A stretch of 56,411 nt of DNA, taken from the NCBI GenBank assembly GCA_017434185.1, contig JAFRFV010000050.1, forward strand, positions 1-56,411. The letters run 5' to 3'. The position numbers were made by a program, and so were the translations under genes. This DNA comes from Coriobacteriales bacterium. GTDB taxonomy: Bacteria; Actinomycetota; Coriobacteriia; Coriobacteriales; RUG844. Position 1 is the first letter of the stretch. The number at the start of each line of letters is the position of its first letter. Below are positions 7,851 through 17,567 of this stretch, in pieces. The notes below the pieces were generated by a model. It saw only the letters and a program-made list of their open reading frames with translations. It made no database searches and was not told the origin of the DNA.

Positions 7851-9800
7851 CTACCAGCGTTTCACGATCGTGAGGATGTTCCTGCCATCGCTGCGCTCGT
7901 AGCTGATCTCGTCCACGCTCTTCTTGGCCATCAGGATGCCCAGGCCACCGATGGGCACATCCTCGATCCTCTTGGGAGTGACCGCGTCGGGCTTCTTGAG
8001 GGGATCGAATTCGACGCCGCGGTCAATTAGATCGACCGTGATGGACGGCGGATCGGCGCTGTAGGTACGCTGCACGAGCACCGTGCGCGGCACTTCTGGT
8101 CCAGCGGACTTGTATGCATAGCAGCAGATGTTGGTGAAGAACTCCTCCACCGCGATATCGAGCTTGTTCTGCACGCGCGACGGGCAGAACCTGCGATCGA
8201 GCTCGGCATGCAGGAAGTCGTTCACGCGCTCGAGCTCCGGCAGCAGCGCGGGTACTTCCAGCGATGCGGTGACCTCGGGCGGCACGCCCACCTCGAGCGT
8301 GAGGATGGTGATGTCATCGGATTGCTCGGCGCCCCACGAGAAGCTGTTGACGCCATCGCGCACGGATTCGAGCAGTTCACGCGGATGCAGGCGGTAACCC
8401 CTCTCCGCGATCTCCAGGAGCCCCTTGGTCCCGAACATCTTCTCCTGGGTGTCGAAGGCTTCGGTCACACCGTCGGTATAGAGCAGGAACATGTCGCCCG
8501 GCTTGCAGTCCACGGAGAAGGTGCGATACGTGCGGTCGAAGTTGCCCAACATGGGGCCGGAACGCTGCTTGAGCCAGCGCCAACCACCATCACGTTGCCA
8601 GAGCAGCGGCGGGTTGTGACCGGCGTTGACGTAGTCCACGTGCCCCGTCCCGTAGTCGAGCACGCCCACCCAAGCCGTGACGAACACGCCTTCTTCGTTG
8701 CCTTCGAGCAGCTGACGGTTGGTCTCCGAGACCGCCTCGCCAAGCTCCAGATGCGAGGTCATGTAGTCACGGAGCAGGGCCTTGGCCTTCATCATGAACA
8801 GGGCGGCAGGTACACCCTTGCCGCTCACGTCAGCCACGAGGAAGCCCAGTTTGCCCTTGTAGGCGTCGCAGTCGTCACCGATGAGGAAGAAGTCGTAGAA
8901 GTCGCCACCGATCTGCCTCGCGGCATTCATCGTGGCGTAGATATCGAACTTCATGATGTCCGGGAAGGGCGGGAAGGTACGCGGCAGGGCCGCCTCCTGG
9001 ATGGCGCGTGCGGTTTCGAGTTCGGCATCCATGCGGCTCTCGGTTTCGGCGATGAGCTTCTGCATGGATGAGATGGCGCCGTTGATACCCGCGGTGAGTT
9101 CCTCGAACTCGACGGTGCCTCCCACATCGGCACGTGCGTTCAGATCACCCTTGGCAACGCGGGCGAGTACCGCATTCTCCTGGTCGATGCGCCTGATGAC
9201 GATGTTCTGCAACAACTTGAAGCTGCCCCAGAACATGGCGAGCAGCGCCAACAGGATCGTGAGCGACATGAGAGCGAAGAAGAGCAGGAGGTTGTTGTAG
9301 ACCATCGTCACCGGCTGGACGATGATCACGCTGTAGTCGCCACGACTCATGGCGAGCAGATGGCCCTCACCCAAGGGGGAACCGGGCGGGTAGGGCGTGT
9401 TACCGGGATAGATGACCTTCATCACGTCACCCGTCTCCTGGCTTTGCGCGATGGCACCAAGGGACCTGGCGCCGAAGGTCTTGGACACCTTGGCTCCCTT
9501 GGAGAAACGGGGATTGTTGCTCATGAGGATCGTTCCATCTTCCGTGGCGATTACGACCAGGCCGTTGTCGGCTTCGTCGAAACCATTCATGAGACTGTCG
9601 CCCAGGAAGCCGGACTCCAATTGGTTGAGCAGGTAGTTGGCATCGCCGGTCATGGTCTCCTTGGCAGTCCTGGCCTCGCCGTTCGCGACCATGAAGAAAC
9701 TCATGGCGGAGACGAGCACCGTCACCGCCGCGACGATTATGATGAGCTGCACGGCCAGGACCCTGCGCAGACTCCTCTTCTTGTTGGCTCTCTTGGGCAC
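7851..9800 (-). CDS. Membrane sensor - HAMP - SpoIIE/PP2C phosphatase fused to a C-terminal RsbW-like anti-sigma kinase (HATPase)
   Basis: Two TMs flank a ~130-aa extracytoplasmic domain, followed by HAMP. PP2C motifs GGDFYD, ADVSGKG, YTDGVTEA and DDIT. Kinase boxes EEFFTNI, DRGVEFDP and GGLGI. GTG 9800 follows a GGAGG RBS. Confidence 0.9.
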   Translation of the reverse strand: MPKRANKKRSLRRVLAVQLIIIVAAVTVLVSAMSFFMVANGEARTAKETMTGDANYLLNQLESGFLGDSLMNGFDEADNGLVVIATEDGTILMSNNPRFSKGAKVSKTFGARSLGAIAQSQETGDVMKVIYPGNTPYPPGSPLGEGHLLAMSRGDYSVIIVQPVTMVYNNLLLFFALMSLTILLALLAMFWGSFKLLQNIVIRRIDQENAVLARVAKGDLNARADVGGTVEFEELTAGINGAISSMQKLIAETESRMDAELETARAIQEAALPRTFPPFPDIMKFDIYATMNAARQIGGDFYDFFLIGDDCDAYKGKLGFLVADVSGKGVPAALFMMKAKALLRDYMTSHLELGEAVSETNRQLLEGNEEGVFVTAWVGVLDYGTGHVDYVNAGHNPPLLWQRDGGWRWLKQRSGPMLGNFDRTYRTFSVDCKPGDMFLLYTDGVTEAFDTQEKMFGTKGLLEIAERGYRLHPRELLESVRDGVNSFSWGAEQSDDITILTLEVGVPPEVTASLEVPALLPELERVNDFLHAELDRRFCPSRVQNKLDIAVEEFFTNICCYAYKSAGPEVPRTVLVQRTYSADPPSITVDLIDRGVEFDPLKKPDAVTPKRIEDVPIGGLGILMAKKSVDEISYERSDGRNILTIVKRW

Positions 9801-9848
9801 CAGCACCTCCGCTCGATCACTCGCTCGGACACGTGCTCACTCGAGCAC

Positions 9849-10154
9849 TCAGTCGGTCACGATCTCGAAGACCTCGTTGAGGCCCGTCATCTCGAAGACC
9901 TCCATGACCTCTTCGCAGGGGTGCAGCAGGCGCATGGTGCCCCCGCGCTTGACGGCCAACTTGTCGGCGGCCACGAGCACGCGCAGACCGGCGGAAGCGA
10001 CGTAACTCACTTCCTTCATGTCGATGTCCAGATCGTAAACGGTGTGGGGCAGCTGATCCACCGCGGCGGTCAACTCAGGTGAAGTGTTGACGGTGAGCTT
10101 GCCACCCAGCTCGATAGTCGCCTTGCTGTCCTCGATCTTGGTCACGATCTTCAT
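9849..10154 (-). CDS. STAS-domain anti-sigma-factor antagonist
   Basis: 101 aa with GKLTVNTSPEL and the phospho-acceptor motif YVASAGLRVL; AAGGAAGG RBS. Confidence 0.9.
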   Translation of the reverse strand: MKIVTKIEDSKATIELGGKLTVNTSPELTAAVDQLPHTVYDLDIDMKEVSYVASAGLRVLVAADKLAVKRGGTMRLLHPCEEVMEVFEMTGLNEVFEIVTD

Positions 10155-10158
10155 GTTC

Positions 10159-12351
10159 TCATCCTTCCTTATCCAAACGCTGGCGTTCAACCAACTCAGC
10201 GAAGATTCCGTTCTTGGCTATGAGTTCCTCGTAGGTTCCCTGTTCTGCGATGACACCGTCGTCGACCACAAGTATACGGTCACAATGCTTCACGGTCGAG
10301 AGGCGATGTGCCACGACGATGCGCGTACACTTGAGTTTGGCCAGCGCATCGGCCACGTGCTTCTGGGTGATGTTGTCGAGTGCGCTCGTGGCCTCGTCCA
10401 GCATGAGGATGCGACGCTTGCCACATACGGCACGCGCGATCATGAGACGCTGCCGCTGTCCGCCGGAGATGCCACTGCCGCTTTCGGATATGAGCGTCTG
10501 CATACCCATGGGCATCTTGCGTATGTCCTTGGCGATGCCGGCCAACTCCGCAGCAGCCCATGCATCATCGACCGTCGCAAGCGGATTCGAGATGGTGATG
10601 TTGGACAGGATATCGCCCATGAACAACTTGCCATCCTGCATGACCACACCGATGCGCTGACGCAACGACGTCAGATCGACCTTGCTCGTATCGTAGGGGC
10701 CATAGAAGATACTGCCGCGCTCGGGCGTCTCGAAGCCCAGGAGCAGGCGCATGATGGTCGACTTGCCACAACCACTCTTGCCCACGATGGCCACGTATTC
10801 ACCCTGTCGCACCTTGAACGAGAGGTCACGCAGCACATAGGGGCTCGTCTCGGAATAGCGGAACGCCACACCGGAGACCTCGATCGCACCACTGATGTTC
10901 TCCACCGAGGGCTTATCCTCAGCGATCTCGGGCGTCGCCTCCAGGATGGGTGCCGTCAGGTCGAGCAGGGGCCTGATCTGGGCCATCTCACCCGCGATGC
11001 CCGCGAGCGCCATGATGGCGGCCGTCACCTGGCCATAAGCCACGTTGAACGCCATGAACTCGGCCACGCTCACGCCCTTCATGCCCGCCAGATAGTAGAT
11101 GAGGATGTTACCCAGCAAGCCGATGAGCGCCACGAATGCGGGGAGCGCCTGCACGAGCGTCGGACGATTGTAGTTCACCCGCGCGAGATCCGAGAACTCA
11201 TGCGCCCATTTGGCGAAGGCGCGGTCCTCAGCACCGGCCAGCTTGATCTTCTGGATACCCTCCAGAAGCGCCGTCACCGTACCGGAGAGCTTGGCCTGCA
11301 TCCTCATTCCCTCGTACTCGTAGTTGCGCGTAATGAACGCGGCGATCACGGTGAGCCCCGCTTGCAGGAAGACGACAGCGAAGGCGGGAAGCGCGAGAGA
11401 CGGTGTGATCACGCCGATCTGGAAGATGTAGATGATCGACATGGCGCACGAGAGGAACGAACCCAGCAGGATGGAGGTGATGAGCAGCGAGAGTGTGGTC
11501 ACGCTCGCCACGCGGCTCGCCAGATCACCGGTCTCGTACTGCTTGAAGAACGACGTGGGGAGTGAGAGCACGCGCGAGAAGGTGGCGGCTTCGGCCGCGT
11601 TGCGCAGCTTACCGGACACACGCTCCATCACCAACTTGCGGTAGACGTTGATGAGCGTGGTTGAAACCGCCACGCCAAGCAGGAGGGCGGCGATGGGAAG
11701 GATAAGCCCGGATTGGCCGGAAGGTGCCACCACTTCGAAGGCGACCTTGTTCACCCACGCGGGGAGCAAGCCGATGAGTGCGACGGCGAACGATGCGAAG
11801 AACAGGAGCAGATAATCGCCCCGGCTGTAGATGCGCGAGAGGAACTGGATGAGGTCACGCGTGGTGAGCGCCTTCGCGGGCAGGGGGCGGTAGAACACCT
11901 CGGCATCGGGTAGGATGTGTTGCGCGACCTCGTCGGTCACCTTGAGCTTGCGTCCTGTGCCGGGCTCGAGGTAATGGAAGCCGTGTACGCTCCTGGGCAG
12001 AAGGGCGATCGACTGGCCCGTGTCCATCTTGGCCACCATGGCGCCGAAACCGTTCTTGTGCCAGCCGGGGGTCAGATACACCTTGCGGCGCATCGTGCCG
12101 CTGGGACGGCAGAGCCAATCCAAGCGTTCATTGGGATCGCGGACGCTGTCGGAAACATGTCCGGGAGTGATACCGTAGTACTTGAGACAGGCCCTGGCGG
12201 TGCCATCGACCTGCTCCAGCTCGTCGATGGTGTAGAAGGGCGCCTGGTTGGGATCGGTCACACTCGCTGCAAGCTGATTGAACGCACGCTCCGTGATCTC
12301 CGCGTCAAGACGCATACGGGTCTCGATCTGGGATTCCATCCACCTAGTCAT
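10159..12351 (-). CDS. NHLM/NHLP-system ABC transporter permease/ATPase (subunit without an active peptidase)
   Basis: ABC membrane domain, Walker A GKSGCGKST, signature ISGGQRQR and Walker B LDEATSALD. The N-terminus lacks the C39 catalytic Cys. The start overlaps the upstream stop. Confidence 0.88.
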   Translation of the reverse strand: MTRWMESQIETRMRLDAEITERAFNQLAASVTDPNQAPFYTIDELEQVDGTARACLKYYGITPGHVSDSVRDPNERLDWLCRPSGTMRRKVYLTPGWHKNGFGAMVAKMDTGQSIALLPRSVHGFHYLEPGTGRKLKVTDEVAQHILPDAEVFYRPLPAKALTTRDLIQFLSRIYSRGDYLLLFFASFAVALIGLLPAWVNKVAFEVVAPSGQSGLILPIAALLLGVAVSTTLINVYRKLVMERVSGKLRNAAEAATFSRVLSLPTSFFKQYETGDLASRVASVTTLSLLITSILLGSFLSCAMSIIYIFQIGVITPSLALPAFAVVFLQAGLTVIAAFITRNYEYEGMRMQAKLSGTVTALLEGIQKIKLAGAEDRAFAKWAHEFSDLARVNYNRPTLVQALPAFVALIGLLGNILIYYLAGMKGVSVAEFMAFNVAYGQVTAAIMALAGIAGEMAQIRPLLDLTAPILEATPEIAEDKPSVENISGAIEVSGVAFRYSETSPYVLRDLSFKVRQGEYVAIVGKSGCGKSTIMRLLLGFETPERGSIFYGPYDTSKVDLTSLRQRIGVVMQDGKLFMGDILSNITISNPLATVDDAWAAAELAGIAKDIRKMPMGMQTLISESGSGISGGQRQRLMIARAVCGKRRILMLDEATSALDNITQKHVADALAKLKCTRIVVAHRLSTVKHCDRILVVDDGVIAEQGTYEELIAKNGIFAELVERQRLDKEG

Positions 12352-14503
12352 TGCGCACCAACTCCGCATATGCCCCGTTTTGTGCCAGGAGCTGGTCGTG
12401 GGTGCCTCTCTCGACCACCTTGCCCTCGTCGAGCACGATGATCTCATCACAATCGCGGATGGTGCTCAGGCGGTGTGCGACGACAACACAGGTGATGCCA
12501 CGGTCGCGGATGCGCCCGATCACCTCGGCTTCGGTTTGGGCATCAAGGGCGCTCGTGGCCTCATCCAGGATGACGATGGTGGGATCCTGTGCGAGGACAC
12601 GCGCTATCTCGAGTCGTTGCAGCTGACCGCCGCTGTAATTGCGGCCTCCCGGCAGGATGCGGCTGTTGTAGCCACCTTCACGGGCGGCGATCACGTCATG
12701 GATGCCAGCATCGCGACAGGCGAGGATGACCTCGTAGTCCTCGATGCTCCTGTCCCATAGCTTGACGTTGTCGCTCACCGTATCATCGAAGGTCACGATG
12801 TCCTGGTCCACAACGGAAAGCGAGCAACGCAGGATGGGCGTGGGGATCTCGCGCAGGGGGATACCGTCGAAGAGCACCTGTCCGCTCCAGGGATCGAAGA
12901 GGCCGGAGATGATCTTCGCGATCGTGCTCTTGCCGCAGCCCGAGCCGCCCACGAGCGCGACCCACTGGCCCGGCTCGAGATGGAGATCGAAGTTCTCGAC
13001 CAGCGGGGGCTCGAACGGCGAGTAGCCAAAGGTCACACCCTGCAGGTCGATGCGACCACGTAGTTTCTCGTGATCGAAGTCCTGGGCGGGAAGCGCCTGT
13101 GCATCCTCCGGTACGTCGACTGGATTGCGCATGACGTCTTCGACGCGCTCCATCTCGGTGCTCACCTCCTGGACCGTCTGGCCCAGACCGATCAACTGCG
13201 TCACCGGCTCCATGAACGAACTCAGGAAGCCTGTGAAGGCGAGTAACATACCGGGCGTGAATTGATGTTCGATGATGAGCCAGATGCCCAACACGAAGAC
13301 CACGATGTTGGCGATCTTGGTCACGAGCGTGGGAACCACGCCAAGGACCTCGTTCACGCGCATCAGACGACCGCGTGTGCCACCGAAGATCACCTGGTAG
13401 CCGGCCCAGCGGCTGAAGAAGCCCCTCTCCGCACCGGCGGCCTTGATGGTCTCGATCATCTGGATGCCGTTCACCGTGGTCGAATACTGCTTGCTCGCGT
13501 TGATCGTGTTGGCGCGCGAGACGTTCACGCGCTGCGTGGAGATGTAGTGCGCGACGAACGCGTTCGCGATCACGGTGACCACACCCACCAGGGTGAGCAG
13601 AGCGCTGTAATTGAGCATGATGAACAGGTAGAGCACCAGCATGAGGGTGTTCACGAGCACCGGAGCCAGACGCCCCACGAGTGACATCGCGATCTGCTCG
13701 TTGGCGGACTGGCGTTGCTGCAGATCGCCTATCATGCGCTGCGAGAAGAAGCCCACGGGCAGATGCAGCAGATGGCGCATGAAGCGTGATGAACTCACCA
13801 CGGCGATCTTGCCCTGGATGCGGTTCAGGAACACGGCGTTCAGAACGGTCATGATACCGCTGATGATCGCGAGTATGAGCATGACGGCCATCAGGGGGAT
13901 GAGCCAGTCAGGGTCGTTTCGGGTCAGGATGCGGTCCATGAAGACCTGGCCGAGCGACGTGCTCAGGATGGCCACGAGCGAGCTCACCAATGCGGTGAGC
14001 ATGACGAAGGTGATGGCGGGAGCAAGACCCTTCAGTCGTTGGCGCGCATACTTGAGCGTGTCGGGCTTCTGGCCACCGGGCTCGAAGGCGTCGGTCTTCT
14101 CGAACATGAGCGCGACACCGGTGAAGCTCTTGTTGAATTCGCTCATGCTCACTTTGAGCTGCCCGCGTGCGGGATCGTTGATGAGAGCGAACTTGCCCTT
14201 GAAGCCACACAGCACGACGAAGTGGTTGAAGTTCCAGAACAGGATGCAGGGGATGTTCCCGCTCTTGCGCAGCGCCTCACTCGAGAAGCTCATCCCCTTG
14301 GCGGATAAGCCATAGCGCCGTGCGGCTTTGAGCATGTTCGAGGCCTTGGAGCCATCGCGGGAGACGCCGCAATCCTCACGCACCTGCTCGAGCGGCACCC
14401 AGCGGCCGTAGTACGCGAGGATCATGGTGAGACAGGCGGCGCCGCATTCGAGCGCCTCCATCTGCATGACCTGCGGGACCTTGACGACGGAATCGGTCAT
14501 CAC
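12344..14503 (-). CDS. NHLM/NHLP-system C39 peptidase / ABC transporter
   Basis: C39 triad intact: QMEALECGAACL (Cys), WNFNHFVV (His) and INDPARG (Asp). Walker A GGSGCGKST and signature YSGGQLQR. Confidence 0.93.
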   Translation of the reverse strand: MMTDSVVKVPQVMQMEALECGAACLTMILAYYGRWVPLEQVREDCGVSRDGSKASNMLKAARRYGLSAKGMSFSSEALRKSGNIPCILFWNFNHFVVLCGFKGKFALINDPARGQLKVSMSEFNKSFTGVALMFEKTDAFEPGGQKPDTLKYARQRLKGLAPAITFVMLTALVSSLVAILSTSLGQVFMDRILTRNDPDWLIPLMAVMLILAIISGIMTVLNAVFLNRIQGKIAVVSSSRFMRHLLHLPVGFFSQRMIGDLQQRQSANEQIAMSLVGRLAPVLVNTLMLVLYLFIMLNYSALLTLVGVVTVIANAFVAHYISTQRVNVSRANTINASKQYSTTVNGIQMIETIKAAGAERGFFSRWAGYQVIFGGTRGRLMRVNEVLGVVPTLVTKIANIVVFVLGIWLIIEHQFTPGMLLAFTGFLSSFMEPVTQLIGLGQTVQEVSTEMERVEDVMRNPVDVPEDAQALPAQDFDHEKLRGRIDLQGVTFGYSPFEPPLVENFDLHLEPGQWVALVGGSGCGKSTIAKIISGLFDPWSGQVLFDGIPLREIPTPILRCSLSVVDQDIVTFDDTVSDNVKLWDRSIEDYEVILACRDAGIHDVIAAREGGYNSRILPGGRNYSGGQLQRLEIARVLAQDPTIVILDEATSALDAQTEAEVIGRIRDRGITCVVVAHRLSTIRDCDEIIVLDEGKVVERGTHDQLLAQNGAYAELVRND

Positions 14504-15009: not shown

Positions 15010-15515
15010 CACTGGCTCCTCTCTGCGGCCCGACGCATCTTCTCGAGCGCACGTGCGAGTTTGGTGGAAACGGTTGATGGTTTCATGCACAGCTCCTGCG
15101 CGATCCGCGCATTGCGCATGCCATCACGGTATTTGAGTGCAACGATCTCGCGTTCCTTCTGATCAAGGCACGCGAGCAGTTGCTTGATCAACATGAGGTC
15201 GAGTGAGGCATCCTGCTCCGGGGCGAGCTCGAGCAGAGGCTCCGGCACATCGTCGAGCACAACAAGCGTGCGCTCCTTGCGATAATGGCTCACCAGGCAG
15301 TTCTTGGCGATGGCGATGACCCAGGTGCTGAACCCAGCGCGCGTCGGGTCGAAGGAATCGAAGGAGCGGGCAGCCTTCAGGAACGCCTCGCTCACGATGT
15401 CCTGGGCATCCGCATCACAGGCCGCACGGGCCCGCACGAAACCATAGACGGTGGCGAAACTCTCGTTGTAGAGGCGAGTGAATTCACGCTCGCGGTCCGA
15501 AGGGGACTGCGTCAC
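15009..15515 (-). CDS. ECF sigma-70 factor (no. 1)
   Basis: Region 2 'AQDIVSEAFLKA' and 'FSTWVIAIAKN'; region 4 HTH 'EREIVALKYRDGMRNARIAQEL...TVSTKLARA'. A TGATG overlap couples it to the secretion gene. Confidence 0.92.
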   Translation of the reverse strand: MTQSPSDREREFTRLYNESFATVYGFVRARAACDADAQDIVSEAFLKAARSFDSFDPTRAGFSTWVIAIAKNCLVSHYRKERTLVVLDDVPEPLLELAPEQDASLDLMLIKQLLACLDQKEREIVALKYRDGMRNARIAQELCMKPSTVSTKLARALEKMRRAAERSQ

Positions 15516-15665: not shown

Positions 15666-15899
15666 TCAATCCAAGGGGGATTCAGATGCATCCGGGACGG
15701 CGTGCCCTGCGGCGAGTTCCGGAACACCGGCGGCGGCGAGCATCTCCAGGTCGTCGTCATCGAGTGGCATGCCCTCGTCGTTGGCATGCAATGTGGCGAT
15801 GCAGCGTTCGAGCAGCGCATCACGGAACCCCTGTGTGCCCGCACTCAGGTCCTGTTGCATCATGCGTTCCAACATCTGCTCGAACTCTCGTTCTTCCAC
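15666..15899 (-). CDS. 77-aa acidic protein with an internal double-glycine-leader-like motif; candidate anti-sigma factor
   Basis: GGAGG RBS then GTG 15899: MEEREFEQMLERMMQQDLSAGTQGFRDALLERCIATLHANDEGMPLDDDDLEMLAAAGVPEL... It lies directly upstream of the ECF sigma gene. Confidence 0.7.
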   Translation of the reverse strand: MEEREFEQMLERMMQQDLSAGTQGFRDALLERCIATLHANDEGMPLDDDDLEMLAAAGVPELAAGHAVPDASESPLD

Positions 15900-15954
15900 G
15901 TCCGCCTCCCCTTCCGTGTCCCGCTCGCATGCGCCCATGCATGCTCATGCCCTT

Positions 15955-16014: not shown

Positions 16015-16042
16015 GAGACAGAAACAGTCCTTGCAACGTACA
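16015..16042 (+). promoter_or_regulatory. Candidate ECF promoter GAGACA-N16-CGTACA (toward the precursor peptide)
   Basis: -35 at 16015-16020, -10 at 16037-16042 and a 16-nt spacer, 44 nt upstream of ATG 16086. Confidence 0.5.
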
Positions 16043-16085: not shown

Positions 16086-16313
16086 ATGATAGACAGTCAA
16101 ACCGAAGGCATCGAGCTCCCTGATGAGCTGCTCGAAGCGGTCGCAGGTGGACGCCTGGCGGACATCGGCATGGACAACTTCCGCTCTTGGCTGGCGTTCG
16201 CCAAGGAGAAGGGTTTCGATAAGGACTTCGCTCTGGCCACCTTCGGTGGTGCGGGCCTGGCACTCGCCGACGGGTTCACCGACAAGCTCGCCTCGATGTG
16301 GGACGAGATCTAG
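16086..16313 (+). CDS. Double-glycine-leader precursor peptide (22-aa leader plus 53-aa Cys-free core)
   Basis: GAAGGGA RBS; leader MIDSQTEGIELPDELLEAVAGG; divergent from a C39 exporter; followed by a strong hairpin. Confidence 0.85.
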   Translation: MIDSQTEGIELPDELLEAVAGGRLADIGMDNFRSWLAFAKEKGFDKDFALATFGGAGLALADGFTDKLASMWDEI

Positions 16314-16400: not shown

Positions 16401-17567
16401 TCAGATGCGCGTACGCGAACGACGCGCGGTCATGCTGATGCTGATAAGCGCGGCGCCAGCGAGCAGGGCAAGCGCTGCGATGGGCGCGGTATCGCCGGTC
16501 TTGGGGGTGCTGCCGTCCTCGGCGTCGCCGCTGCCACCATCGCCGTTGTCGTCGCCGTCGTCGTCGCCGTTGGGTGTGGGATCGGCGTTCTTCTCGTAGA
16601 TAGCGGTGTAGTCATGATCGCCTTCGACGACGAACTCCTCACCTGCTTGAAGCTGAGAGCCTTCCCAATACTTGAACGTGTGGCCGTCAAGCGTGGGGGC
16701 ACCGGGAGCCTTGATCGTCTCGCCCACGTTCGCATCGATGGTGATGCTGCCTCCGGTCTGGCTATCGAGCGTGCCCTCACCCAGGTTGAAGGTGAGCTTC
16801 GCTGGTGTCGTGGTCAGGTACTGGGTATCCGTGACCCTTCCAGACAAGCCGGATGAAGGGTAATCGGAAGACCGCGCCGTGATTACTGCCTCGAACTTAG
16901 CGTCGCCACTATGGATAATAACATCGTAGGGCACCGTATACGGGAAGTCGTGCGTCATGCTTCCGTCGGGAGCAAGAGTCTCGATAAGCCACGACGCTCC
17001 GGAAAGATGGTCGCTGATCAAGATGTCGTTCAAGTTGGCGAGCCCTACATTCTTGACGGTGACCTTCCAATTGATCGTCTCGCCGAATACATATTGGGGA
17101 CCATTACTGGGAGGGTTGGTGGCTTCGACGGTGACGTACAGAGGAGACGCTGGAAGAGTGTAGGATCTTGTGGCGGTGATCTCTTCGTCGGAGAATTCGT
17201 GAGTGGAAGCGGAGAACGTGAAGTCCTTCTCGATCGAACCGGCAAGCGCATCGTCTTGGGTCACAGTATGCGTGAGGGTGGCTGTCATCTTTTCTCCAGG
17301 GGCGAGGTGTGAAAACAACAGGGTTTTGTCACCCTCCTCGTCGGTGACTCCGATATTGACGAGTTCCTGGTAGTCTCCGCAGGTGAAATCCACCTCCCAC
17401 TTGATGACATCGCCAGGGACATAGGCGAAACCATGGAGAGGGTCATCAAGGGGACCCCTCATCTCGATTGTCATACAATCATCCAAGTCTTCGGCAAGAG
17501 CCGAACCTGGAAACAGCACCGCTGCCACCATCAGGCTCAGCAACGCGATGATGAGTCTCTTCTTCAT
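16401..17567 (-). CDS. Sortase-anchored surface protein with two Ig-like (DUF11/DUF7507-like) repeats and an InlB B-repeat-like domain
   Basis: Signal peptide; repeats 'YVPGDVIKWEVDFT..N..VTD' and 'YVFGETINWKVTVKNVG...ISD'; 'PTLDGHTFKYW...YTAIY'; TPKTGD, TM and basic tail. AGGAGG RBS. Confidence 0.85.
   Translation of the reverse strand: MKKRLIIALLSLMVAAVLFPGSALAEDLDDCMTIEMRGPLDDPLHGFAYVPGDVIKWEVDFTCGDYQELVNIGVTDEEGDKTLLFSHLAPGEKMTATLTHTVTQDDALAGSIEKDFTFSASTHEFSDEEITATRSYTLPASPLYVTVEATNPPSNGPQYVFGETINWKVTVKNVGLANLNDILISDHLSGASWLIETLAPDGSMTHDFPYTVPYDVIIHSGDAKFEAVITARSSDYPSSGLSGRVTDTQYLTTTPAKLTFNLGEGTLDSQTGGSITIDANVGETIKAPGAPTLDGHTFKYWEGSQLQAGEEFVVEGDHDYTAIYEKNADPTPNGDDDGDDNGDGGSGDAEDGSTPKTGDTAPIAALALLAGAALISISMTARRSRTRI

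Follow-up and report, generated by a model that had tools for sequence, protein, structure and literature searches.

Double-glycine leader peptides exported by PCAT-AMS systems (ComC/ComA, CtA/PCAT1 and the LahT substrates) carry an amphipathic helix with leucine at position -12, an acidic residue at -8, leucine at -7 and a hydrophobic residue at -4. Their genes lie beside a C39-ABC exporter and an accessory protein, and the leader is conserved and the C-terminal part variable. The PCAT consensus is L(-12)xxxE(-8)L(-7)xxxxG(-2)G(-1), in which L-12 and L-7 form a hydrophobic knot on the C39 domain, and the cleft of that domain is narrow and Gly-Gly-specific (PMC6959990). The long-leader RiPP precursors of the NHLP and Nif11 type combine a long conserved leader and a double-glycine-type end with the TIGR03794/03796/03797 export trio. 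In pheromone cassettes such as comCDE, blpCHR and plnABCD, a small GG-type peptide precedes a histidine kinase and a response regulator, with a dedicated PCAT and, as with ComX, an alternative sigma factor downstream.

Other systems couple sigma factors to secretion or proteolysis. FlgM, with sigma-28, and BtrA (BspR), with BtrS, are small soluble proteins encoded beside their sigma factors, and each carries a signal for the secretion machine that its circuit controls. In the btr locus of Bordetella, the gene for BtrA, a secreted anti-ECF-sigma, adjoins that for BtrS, and the locus also encodes a PP2C phosphatase, a STAS protein and an RsbW-like kinase (PMC7498569). Regulated proteolysis of RseA, RsiW and RsdA employs a membrane site-2 protease. 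The x-Ala-Ala ends that proteolysis exposes send anti-sigma factors to ClpXP (bioRxiv 10.1101/491043). Neither the ECF classification (PMC7826278) nor a review of non-canonical ECF factors (PMC8999054) mentions an ECF group with a C39 exporter, bacteriocin export or a STAS/RsbW context.

The stretch of Coriobacteriales DNA analysed here (the window, 56,411 nt) combines elements of these systems around a small gene on its minus strand. A first-pass annotation had read the 77-aa product as a putative anti-sigma with a helical N-terminal half, carrying a mimic of the leader of a neighbouring peptide. The open reading frame exists as described, its leader-like string occupies residues 43–58 (GMPLDDDDLEMLAAAG), and the N-terminal half is indeed predicted to be helical. 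The small-protein family and its gene module are undescribed. Judged by membership, the closest class is that of the double-glycine leader peptides, whose helix positions, gene neighbourhood and pattern of conservation the family shares, though the Gly-Gly is lacking and the leader is atypically long. Where those peptides have Gly-Gly, the family has Ala-Ala and an invariant Gly; its leader of ~57 aa includes an extra, highly conserved two-helix domain, its cargo would be only ~10–30 acidic, disordered residues, and its gene is strictly paired with an ECF sigma gene. On the same comparisons the small protein falls outside the anti-sigma families and outside the NHLP and Nif11 families; the module shares the export trio with the latter two but has no modification enzymes, a HlyD-like partner truncated to ~170 aa, and an associated sigma factor. 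By analogy, the closest functional precedents are FlgM and above all the btr locus. Here the export signal is putative, and export would use a substrate-cutting C39 ABC exporter where those systems rely on type III secretion; after cleavage the cytoplasm would retain the conserved domain, and the small protein has no sequence similarity to FlgM or BtrA. Coordinates are collected in Table 1.

Table 1. Features of the small-protein module in the window
Feature	Position	Strand	Basis or remark
77-aa small-protein gene	15666..15899	(-)	GTG start at 15899, TGA stop 15666-15668; undescribed family
Shine-Dalgarno GGAGG	15905..15909	(-)	5 nt 5' of GTG start
N-terminal two-helix domain, residues 1-39	15783..15899	(-)	Family signature and predicted helices
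Double-glycine-type leader helix and putative C39 cleavage site	15726..15764	(-)	Site statistics; predicted helix 48-57
Variable tail, residues 59-77	15669..15725	(-)	Low pLDDT, mostly coil; putative exported part or translocation handle
Cognate ECF sigma factor, 168 aa	15009..15515	(-)	Pfam and NCBIfam; 150 nt 3' of small gene, same frame
Short HlyD-like NHLP secretion accessory protein, 169 aa	14500..15009	(-)	TIGR03794 N-terminal match; synteny
C39 peptidase-ABC exporter subunit	12344..14503	(-)	TIGR03796, 938 bits, above cut-off
Second ABC subunit (ABC2)	10159..12351	(-)	TIGR03797; ~185-aa N-terminal domain without known fold
STAS anti-sigma-antagonist-like protein	9849..10190	(-)	Pfam/NCBIfam; recurrent module member
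Membrane HAMP-SpoIIE(PP2C)-HATPase_c_2 (RsbW-like) fusion	7851..9806	(-)	Pfam; synteny in L001, L009, L029
Divergent 75-aa peptide, canonical GG leader AVAGG/R	16086..16313	(+)	Lineage-specific second cargo (putative)
ECF-type promoter of small-protein/sigma operon, GGGACG-N16-CGTATAA	15954..15982	(-)	Motif also 5' of homologous genes
Matching ECF-type promoter, GAGACA-N16-CGTA	16015..16040	(+)	Before 75-aa peptide gene

The 77-aa form is preferred over a 90-aa form with an ATG start, since the homologs begin at the equivalent M[DE]EREFE. A chance open reading frame was considered and rejected: the family is large, a ribosome-binding site is present and the promoter is conserved. A word-indexed search gave 8 relatives; an exhaustive profile search extended the family to at least 225 cluster representatives at E <= 1e-3, with 142 at E <= 1e-10. 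Among the members listed, the length ranges from 58 to 139 aa, without fusion to another domain. Neither the window protein nor 82 relatives matched a Pfam or NCBIfam model, and Pfam at E values up to 10 returned scattered noise. A PDB profile search with the small protein gave nothing below E = 0.2, only noise; Foldseek of its predicted model against the PDB gave 0 matches; and comparison with the NHLP and Nif11 models (TIGR03793, TIGR03798, PF07862) gave no match to the protein or its N-terminal domain.

With 82 family rows, AlphaFold predicted helices at residues 3–15, 23–39 and 48–57 with a mean pLDDT of 78, and a low-confidence tail that is mostly coil. The first two helices, with block-mean pLDDT values of 73–88, form the N-terminal domain. 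Its signature of invariant or near-invariant alignment columns, D-[FL]-S-x-G-T-E-x-F-R-[DE]-x-L-L-x-R-C-[LI], is better conserved than the leader helix, and its conserved Ser and Thr lie in the loop joining helices 1 and 2. The third helix is the predicted leader helix, and the tail beyond it is acidic and rich in Pro, Ala, Ser and Glu, with pLDDT values of 52–61 when the protein is folded alone.

The leader motif of the window protein reads L46-x-D-x-x-L-E-x-L-A-A-A57-G58, which places L46 at -12, D48 at -10, D50 at -8, L51 at -7, L54 at -4 and A55, A56 and A57 at -3 to -1, with G58 at +1. Searched in all six frames of the 2-Mb genome, the expression L.D[DE].LE.[VL]A[GA][GA] matched nothing but the small gene and its neighbour for the 75-aa peptide, a weak test since the expression was derived post hoc from these same two sequences. 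Conservation in orthologs, which the first-pass annotation had put forward as a check of its proposal, is borne out across 181 unique family members. Position -12 is hydrophobic (L/I/V) in 100% of them, -10 is D in 84%, -8 is D or E in 69%, and Leu occupies -7 in 92% and -4 in 91%; across the family -3 to -1 read [AS]-A-A, and the following residue, +1, is a near-invariant Gly (91%). The spacing is that of the PCAT consensus, with -12, -8, -7 and -4 satisfied family-wide and Ala-Ala in place of Gly-Gly at -2/-1. One homolog (L025) has the canonical DLDQIAGG/S in the same ungapped register as the AAA/G of the window protein (a slash marks the putative site); this family member, L025:7528-7725 (-), reads IDDADLDQIAGG/STPLPNPTSL where others have LAAAG.

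Downstream of the motif the sequence is hypervariable: counted from G58, the median tail length among the 181 members is 17 aa, and G, D and P abound in the tails. The small-family alignments show a conserved leader and a variable cargo. About one-fifth of the tails hold a loose hydrophobic-G-D-N motif (SLFGDNGD, PLGDNGS, VFGDNKL), which hints at constraint on part of the putative exported segment.

We assembled a set of 28 non-redundant loci that encode a family member, drawn from MAGs of Coriobacteriia (from the guts of ruminants and others), and annotated them against the proteins of the window; on metagenome contigs, an IUPAC DNA pattern for GTExFR[DE]xLLxRCL gave 16 loci. The recurring gene order is the small protein, an optional histidine kinase and regulator, the sigma factor, a short HlyD-like protein, C39-ABC, ABC2, STAS and PP2C-kinase. 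The sigma gene stands near the small gene in 22 of the 28 loci, and in 13 of the 15 with at least 3 kb of room; a PCAT does so in 14, a kinase/regulator pair in 10 and a STAS gene in 9. In the PCAT-less loci that were checked, a PCAT is present elsewhere in the genome. In several loci (L002, L021 and L031) the small gene and sigma stand alone, with nothing else of the module. Across the sampled loci the minimal conserved unit is the small protein with its sigma factor.

The 75-aa peptide has a homolog in 2 of the 28 loci; besides the window, it occurs only in the closely related L011 (L012 duplicates L011). The small protein is the only double-glycine-type peptide that recurs across the 28 loci; the 75-aa peptide has been added locally. 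Hence the small protein is no mimic of a peptide leader, as had been proposed, but the primary conserved element of this type in the module. The alternative offered with that proposal, a competitive decoy for the peptidase, makes little sense in the many loci without another double-glycine peptide.

In the window, the TIGR03796 exporter gene lies 1.2 kb 3' of the small gene in the same operon, and the full TIGR03794/03796/03797 export trio accompanies it. The ATG of the HlyD-like gene overlaps the sigma stop codon (TGATG), and the TIGR03794 match of its product is confined to the N-terminal 82 positions of the model. We considered whether the N-terminal domain of ABC2 might be a degenerate C39-like domain that reads the small N-domain, and found this unsupported: hhalign detected no relation between the ABC2 domain and the C39 domain, and Pfam matched nothing in it.

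The association with the neighbouring ECF sigma factor, also claimed at the outset, is supported. The small gene is the first of an operon that includes the sigma gene, and the interval between them contains no terminator and no unusually stable RNA structure. Copy numbers of the small family and the sigma clade agree (1 or 2) in all 8 genomes checked, with the genes adjacent, and among 301 genomes of the class each of the two is confined to the genome of the window. The exporter behaves otherwise: TIGR03796 matches number 1 to 11 per genome, NHLP-type C39 exporters are also present without the small gene, and 9 other genomes among the 301 carry the exporter. A search that started from the sigma factor found the small gene upstream in three of four long contigs, the exception being the most divergent sigma (48% identity). 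The loci with small gene and sigma only, the 1:1 copy number and the 301-genome co-occurrence argue that the small protein is tied to the sigma factor rather than to the exporter. Such pairing fits a sigma/anti-sigma couple and is equally expected if the small gene is the main target of the sigma factor.

Among 27 distinct loci, ~20 have the promoter motif G[GA]GAC[GA]-N16-CGTATAA 60–83 nt 5' of the small gene, and as read from the sequence the layout is a typical autoregulated ECF arrangement. A genome-wide scan gave 9 matches against ~4 expected by chance; only the two sites in the window are clustered, and no convincing regulon members emerged outside the locus. The sigma circuit looks self-contained. 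The sequencing runs that contain this sequence are DNA metagenomes only, with no RNA among them.

The anti-sigma reading of the small protein is plausible, but the function assigned to it by the first-pass annotation gained no direct support. Pfam, NCBIfam, the PDB profile search and Foldseek revealed no similarity to anti-sigma domains (for example HxxxCxxC or PF04316) or to FlgM. We also modelled the small protein and sigma factor as a pseudo-fusion, their frames being in phase, by reading the TGA as Gly and the interval as a 51-aa spacer. The alignment comprised 4–5 paired, 29 small-only and 40 sigma-only rows. The prediction (pTM 0.50) showed no docking signal and no gain in pLDDT for the small part; the pLDDT of the leader helix fell from 84–86 alone to 64–70 in the fusion, and that of the tail was below 50 from residue 61. 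With few paired rows and a junk linker the test is a weak one, and the model is to be taken as no support for sigma binding, not as a refutation. The module also carries other candidate regulators of the sigma factor: the STAS protein with the PP2C/RsbW-like kinase and, in 10 loci, a pair of histidine kinase and response regulator.

A natural reading links the small protein to the C39 exporter: its family bears a conserved exporter cleavage tag, so that the peptide exporter next to it probably cuts it, and it may tie gene activation to export. We tentatively favour a model in which C39 truly processes the small protein and sigma activity is thereby coupled to export, in the manner of FlgM and BtrA. 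Uncut, it would keep the sigma factor inactive through its N-terminal domain. The C39 domain of the co-encoded exporter would dock the leader helix by L-12, L-7 and L-4 and cut at Ala-Ala-Ala/Gly while the tail is threaded out. The remnant left in the cytoplasm by a cut in the canonical register would end in -L-A-A-A, an ssrA-like end, and would be cleared by ClpXP-type proteolysis; the freed sigma would then boost expression of its own operon and of the divergent gene for the 75-aa peptide. The predicted end resembles the AAA/VAA ends of cleaved anti-sigma factors and the -YALAA end of the genome's own tmRNA tag (DNNSYALAA, encoded on contig C147). The likeness to regulated anti-sigma proteolysis is entirely inferred, and the protease here would be the cytoplasmic C39 domain of the exporter instead of a membrane site-2 protease.

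This export-coupled model would explain two features. The first is the N-domain, which export evidently does not need, since the neighbouring 75-aa cargo has a leader of only 22 aa. The second is the invariant Ala-rich site in place of Gly-Gly. Several observations stand against it. The narrow cleft of C39 may accommodate Ala-Ala at -2/-1 poorly (PMC6959990). Family variants such as LAAGG-DP, together with the invariant Gly, make the scissile bond ambiguous; a cut after the Gly is possible, and the degron idea would then fail. The remnant of the L025 protein would end in -IAGG, which is not a degron, and the RsbW-like kinase domain and STAS protein of the module are possible controllers of the sigma factor. 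A fuller version, in which the protein is a soluble anti-sigma whose exporter cleavage tag replaces a membrane sensor, C39 cuts at AAA/G, ClpXP clears the remnant and the tail serves as a strain-variable signal, strikes us as unlikely; if it held, one small protein would combine the roles of anti-sigma, sensor of exporter activity and pheromone precursor, and ECF sigma factors would have an input mechanism of a new kind.

It is also quite possible, as the main alternative, that the small protein is a signal-peptide precursor of the pheromone type and nothing more. Its N-domain would then be an extended leader that makes no contact with sigma, and the released tail of this long-leader cargo would be sensed by the histidine kinase and response regulator, or by the PP2C-kinase with STAS, with the sensor controlling the sigma factor. 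The 10 of 28 loci with a PF06580 kinase and response regulator by the small gene speak for such a cassette, and in most of them the order, small gene, kinase, regulator and sigma, is that of pheromone cassettes, although the kinase is not of the HPK10 type nor the regulator LytTR. Kinase and regulator orthologs are absent from the window and from its genome, however, and L002, L021 and L031 offer no sensor beside the small gene and sigma. A conserved leader with a variable tail is the pattern of pherotype diversification: the N-domains of L031 and P0088 are identical while their tails have diverged, and the L004/L006/L007 subclade keeps a G[LI]xLPP in the tail. These tails are nonetheless acidic and Gly/Pro-rich, unlike the known cationic or hydrophobic Gram-positive pheromones, and they follow a long structured leader. 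The NHLP/Nif11-type export trio is known for long-leader cargos, but the N-domain matches neither NHLP nor Nif11 models. The RsbW-like and STAS pair as candidate sigma regulators, and the missing docking signal in the AlphaFold fusion, agree with a pure precursor; what it leaves unexplained is an N-domain conserved above the recognition helix, and AAAG in place of GG.

A third possibility, that the N-domain, with its D-x-S-x-G-T, serves not sigma but the RsbW-like kinase/PP2C sensor or STAS, as a ligand or a target of phosphorylation, and that the exporter removes the protein by its leader tag, is in our view very unlikely. STAS and the SpoIIE-HATPase_c_2 protein do recur, even in PCAT-less loci such as L009, and the Ser and Thr of the helix 1–2 loop are conserved; against this, several loci pair the small gene and sigma with neither STAS nor kinase nearby, the small protein has no similarity to STAS, and the reading is purely inferential. 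Least probable of all is an uncleavable decoy whose Ala-Ala site binds C39 uncut and throttles the processing of true GG cargos, which would suit the narrow, Gly-Gly-specific cleft (PMC6959990) and the intact contacts at -12, -7 and -4 but leaves the conserved tail-bearing architecture without use, sits ill with the homolog that has a true GG (L025), and has nothing to compete with in most loci (26 of 28).

Should the small protein prove both to restrain sigma and to be an exporter substrate, this would be the first example of an ECF sigma factor released by the protease activity of an ABC/C39 exporter, and would parallel, in a Gram-positive and by a type-I-like route, the secretion checkpoints of FlgM and BtrA. 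Read conservatively, the data still describe a new peptide family of at least 225 clusters, together with a self-contained module for peptide export, driven by a sigma factor, in Coriobacteriia of the gut and rumen, a group in which, to our knowledge, almost no cell-to-cell signalling has been characterised.

Several further observations concern the neighbourhoods of the related loci. The PF06580 protein is a multi-pass histidine kinase, and its response regulator has a weak Trans_reg_C match; the pair was seen in L003, L005, L009, L013, L023–L025, L027, L029 and L030. The STAS gene and the HAMP-PP2C-HATPase_c_2 fusion (7851-10190 (-) in the window) recur in L001, L009 and L029, 3' of the exporter where one is present, and in L009, with no exporter nearby, the sigma gene directly overlaps the STAS gene; a partner switch may be the real regulator of this sigma clade. 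In an Olsenella MAG (L031:1613-8383), the small gene and sigma stand by two radical SAM/SPASM genes, and the same locus has a faint Nif11-like 115-aa open reading frame and a DUF4135 protein; the neighbourhood may be a RiPP cluster. Two unrelated contigs (L002:6059-7165 (-) and L021:1514-3570 (-)) encode, by their PCAT-less small gene and sigma pairs, a conserved 340–368-aa protein without known function, with the motif …LQAA[ND]E[GR]RG[PA]VLFGDSLDRA….

Within the genome of the window, contig C148 holds a second, partial NHLP-type C39-ABC exporter (C39 domain 69% identical) with a HlyD-like neighbour, and no small-family or sigma-clade gene is detectable there. The small protein (15866-15899) and the sigma factor (15471-15491 (-)) have in common an N-terminal EREF-x-x-[ML] stretch, EEREFEQML against DREREFTRLY, which sufficed for MAFFT to stack small proteins onto the sigma N-terminus and is probably a coincidence. 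Directly upstream of the module lie genes for a 388-aa DUF7507/DUF11 wall protein (16401-17567 (-)) and a giant surface protein of 8234 aa that ends in an LPKTG-type anchor (17607-42311 (-)).
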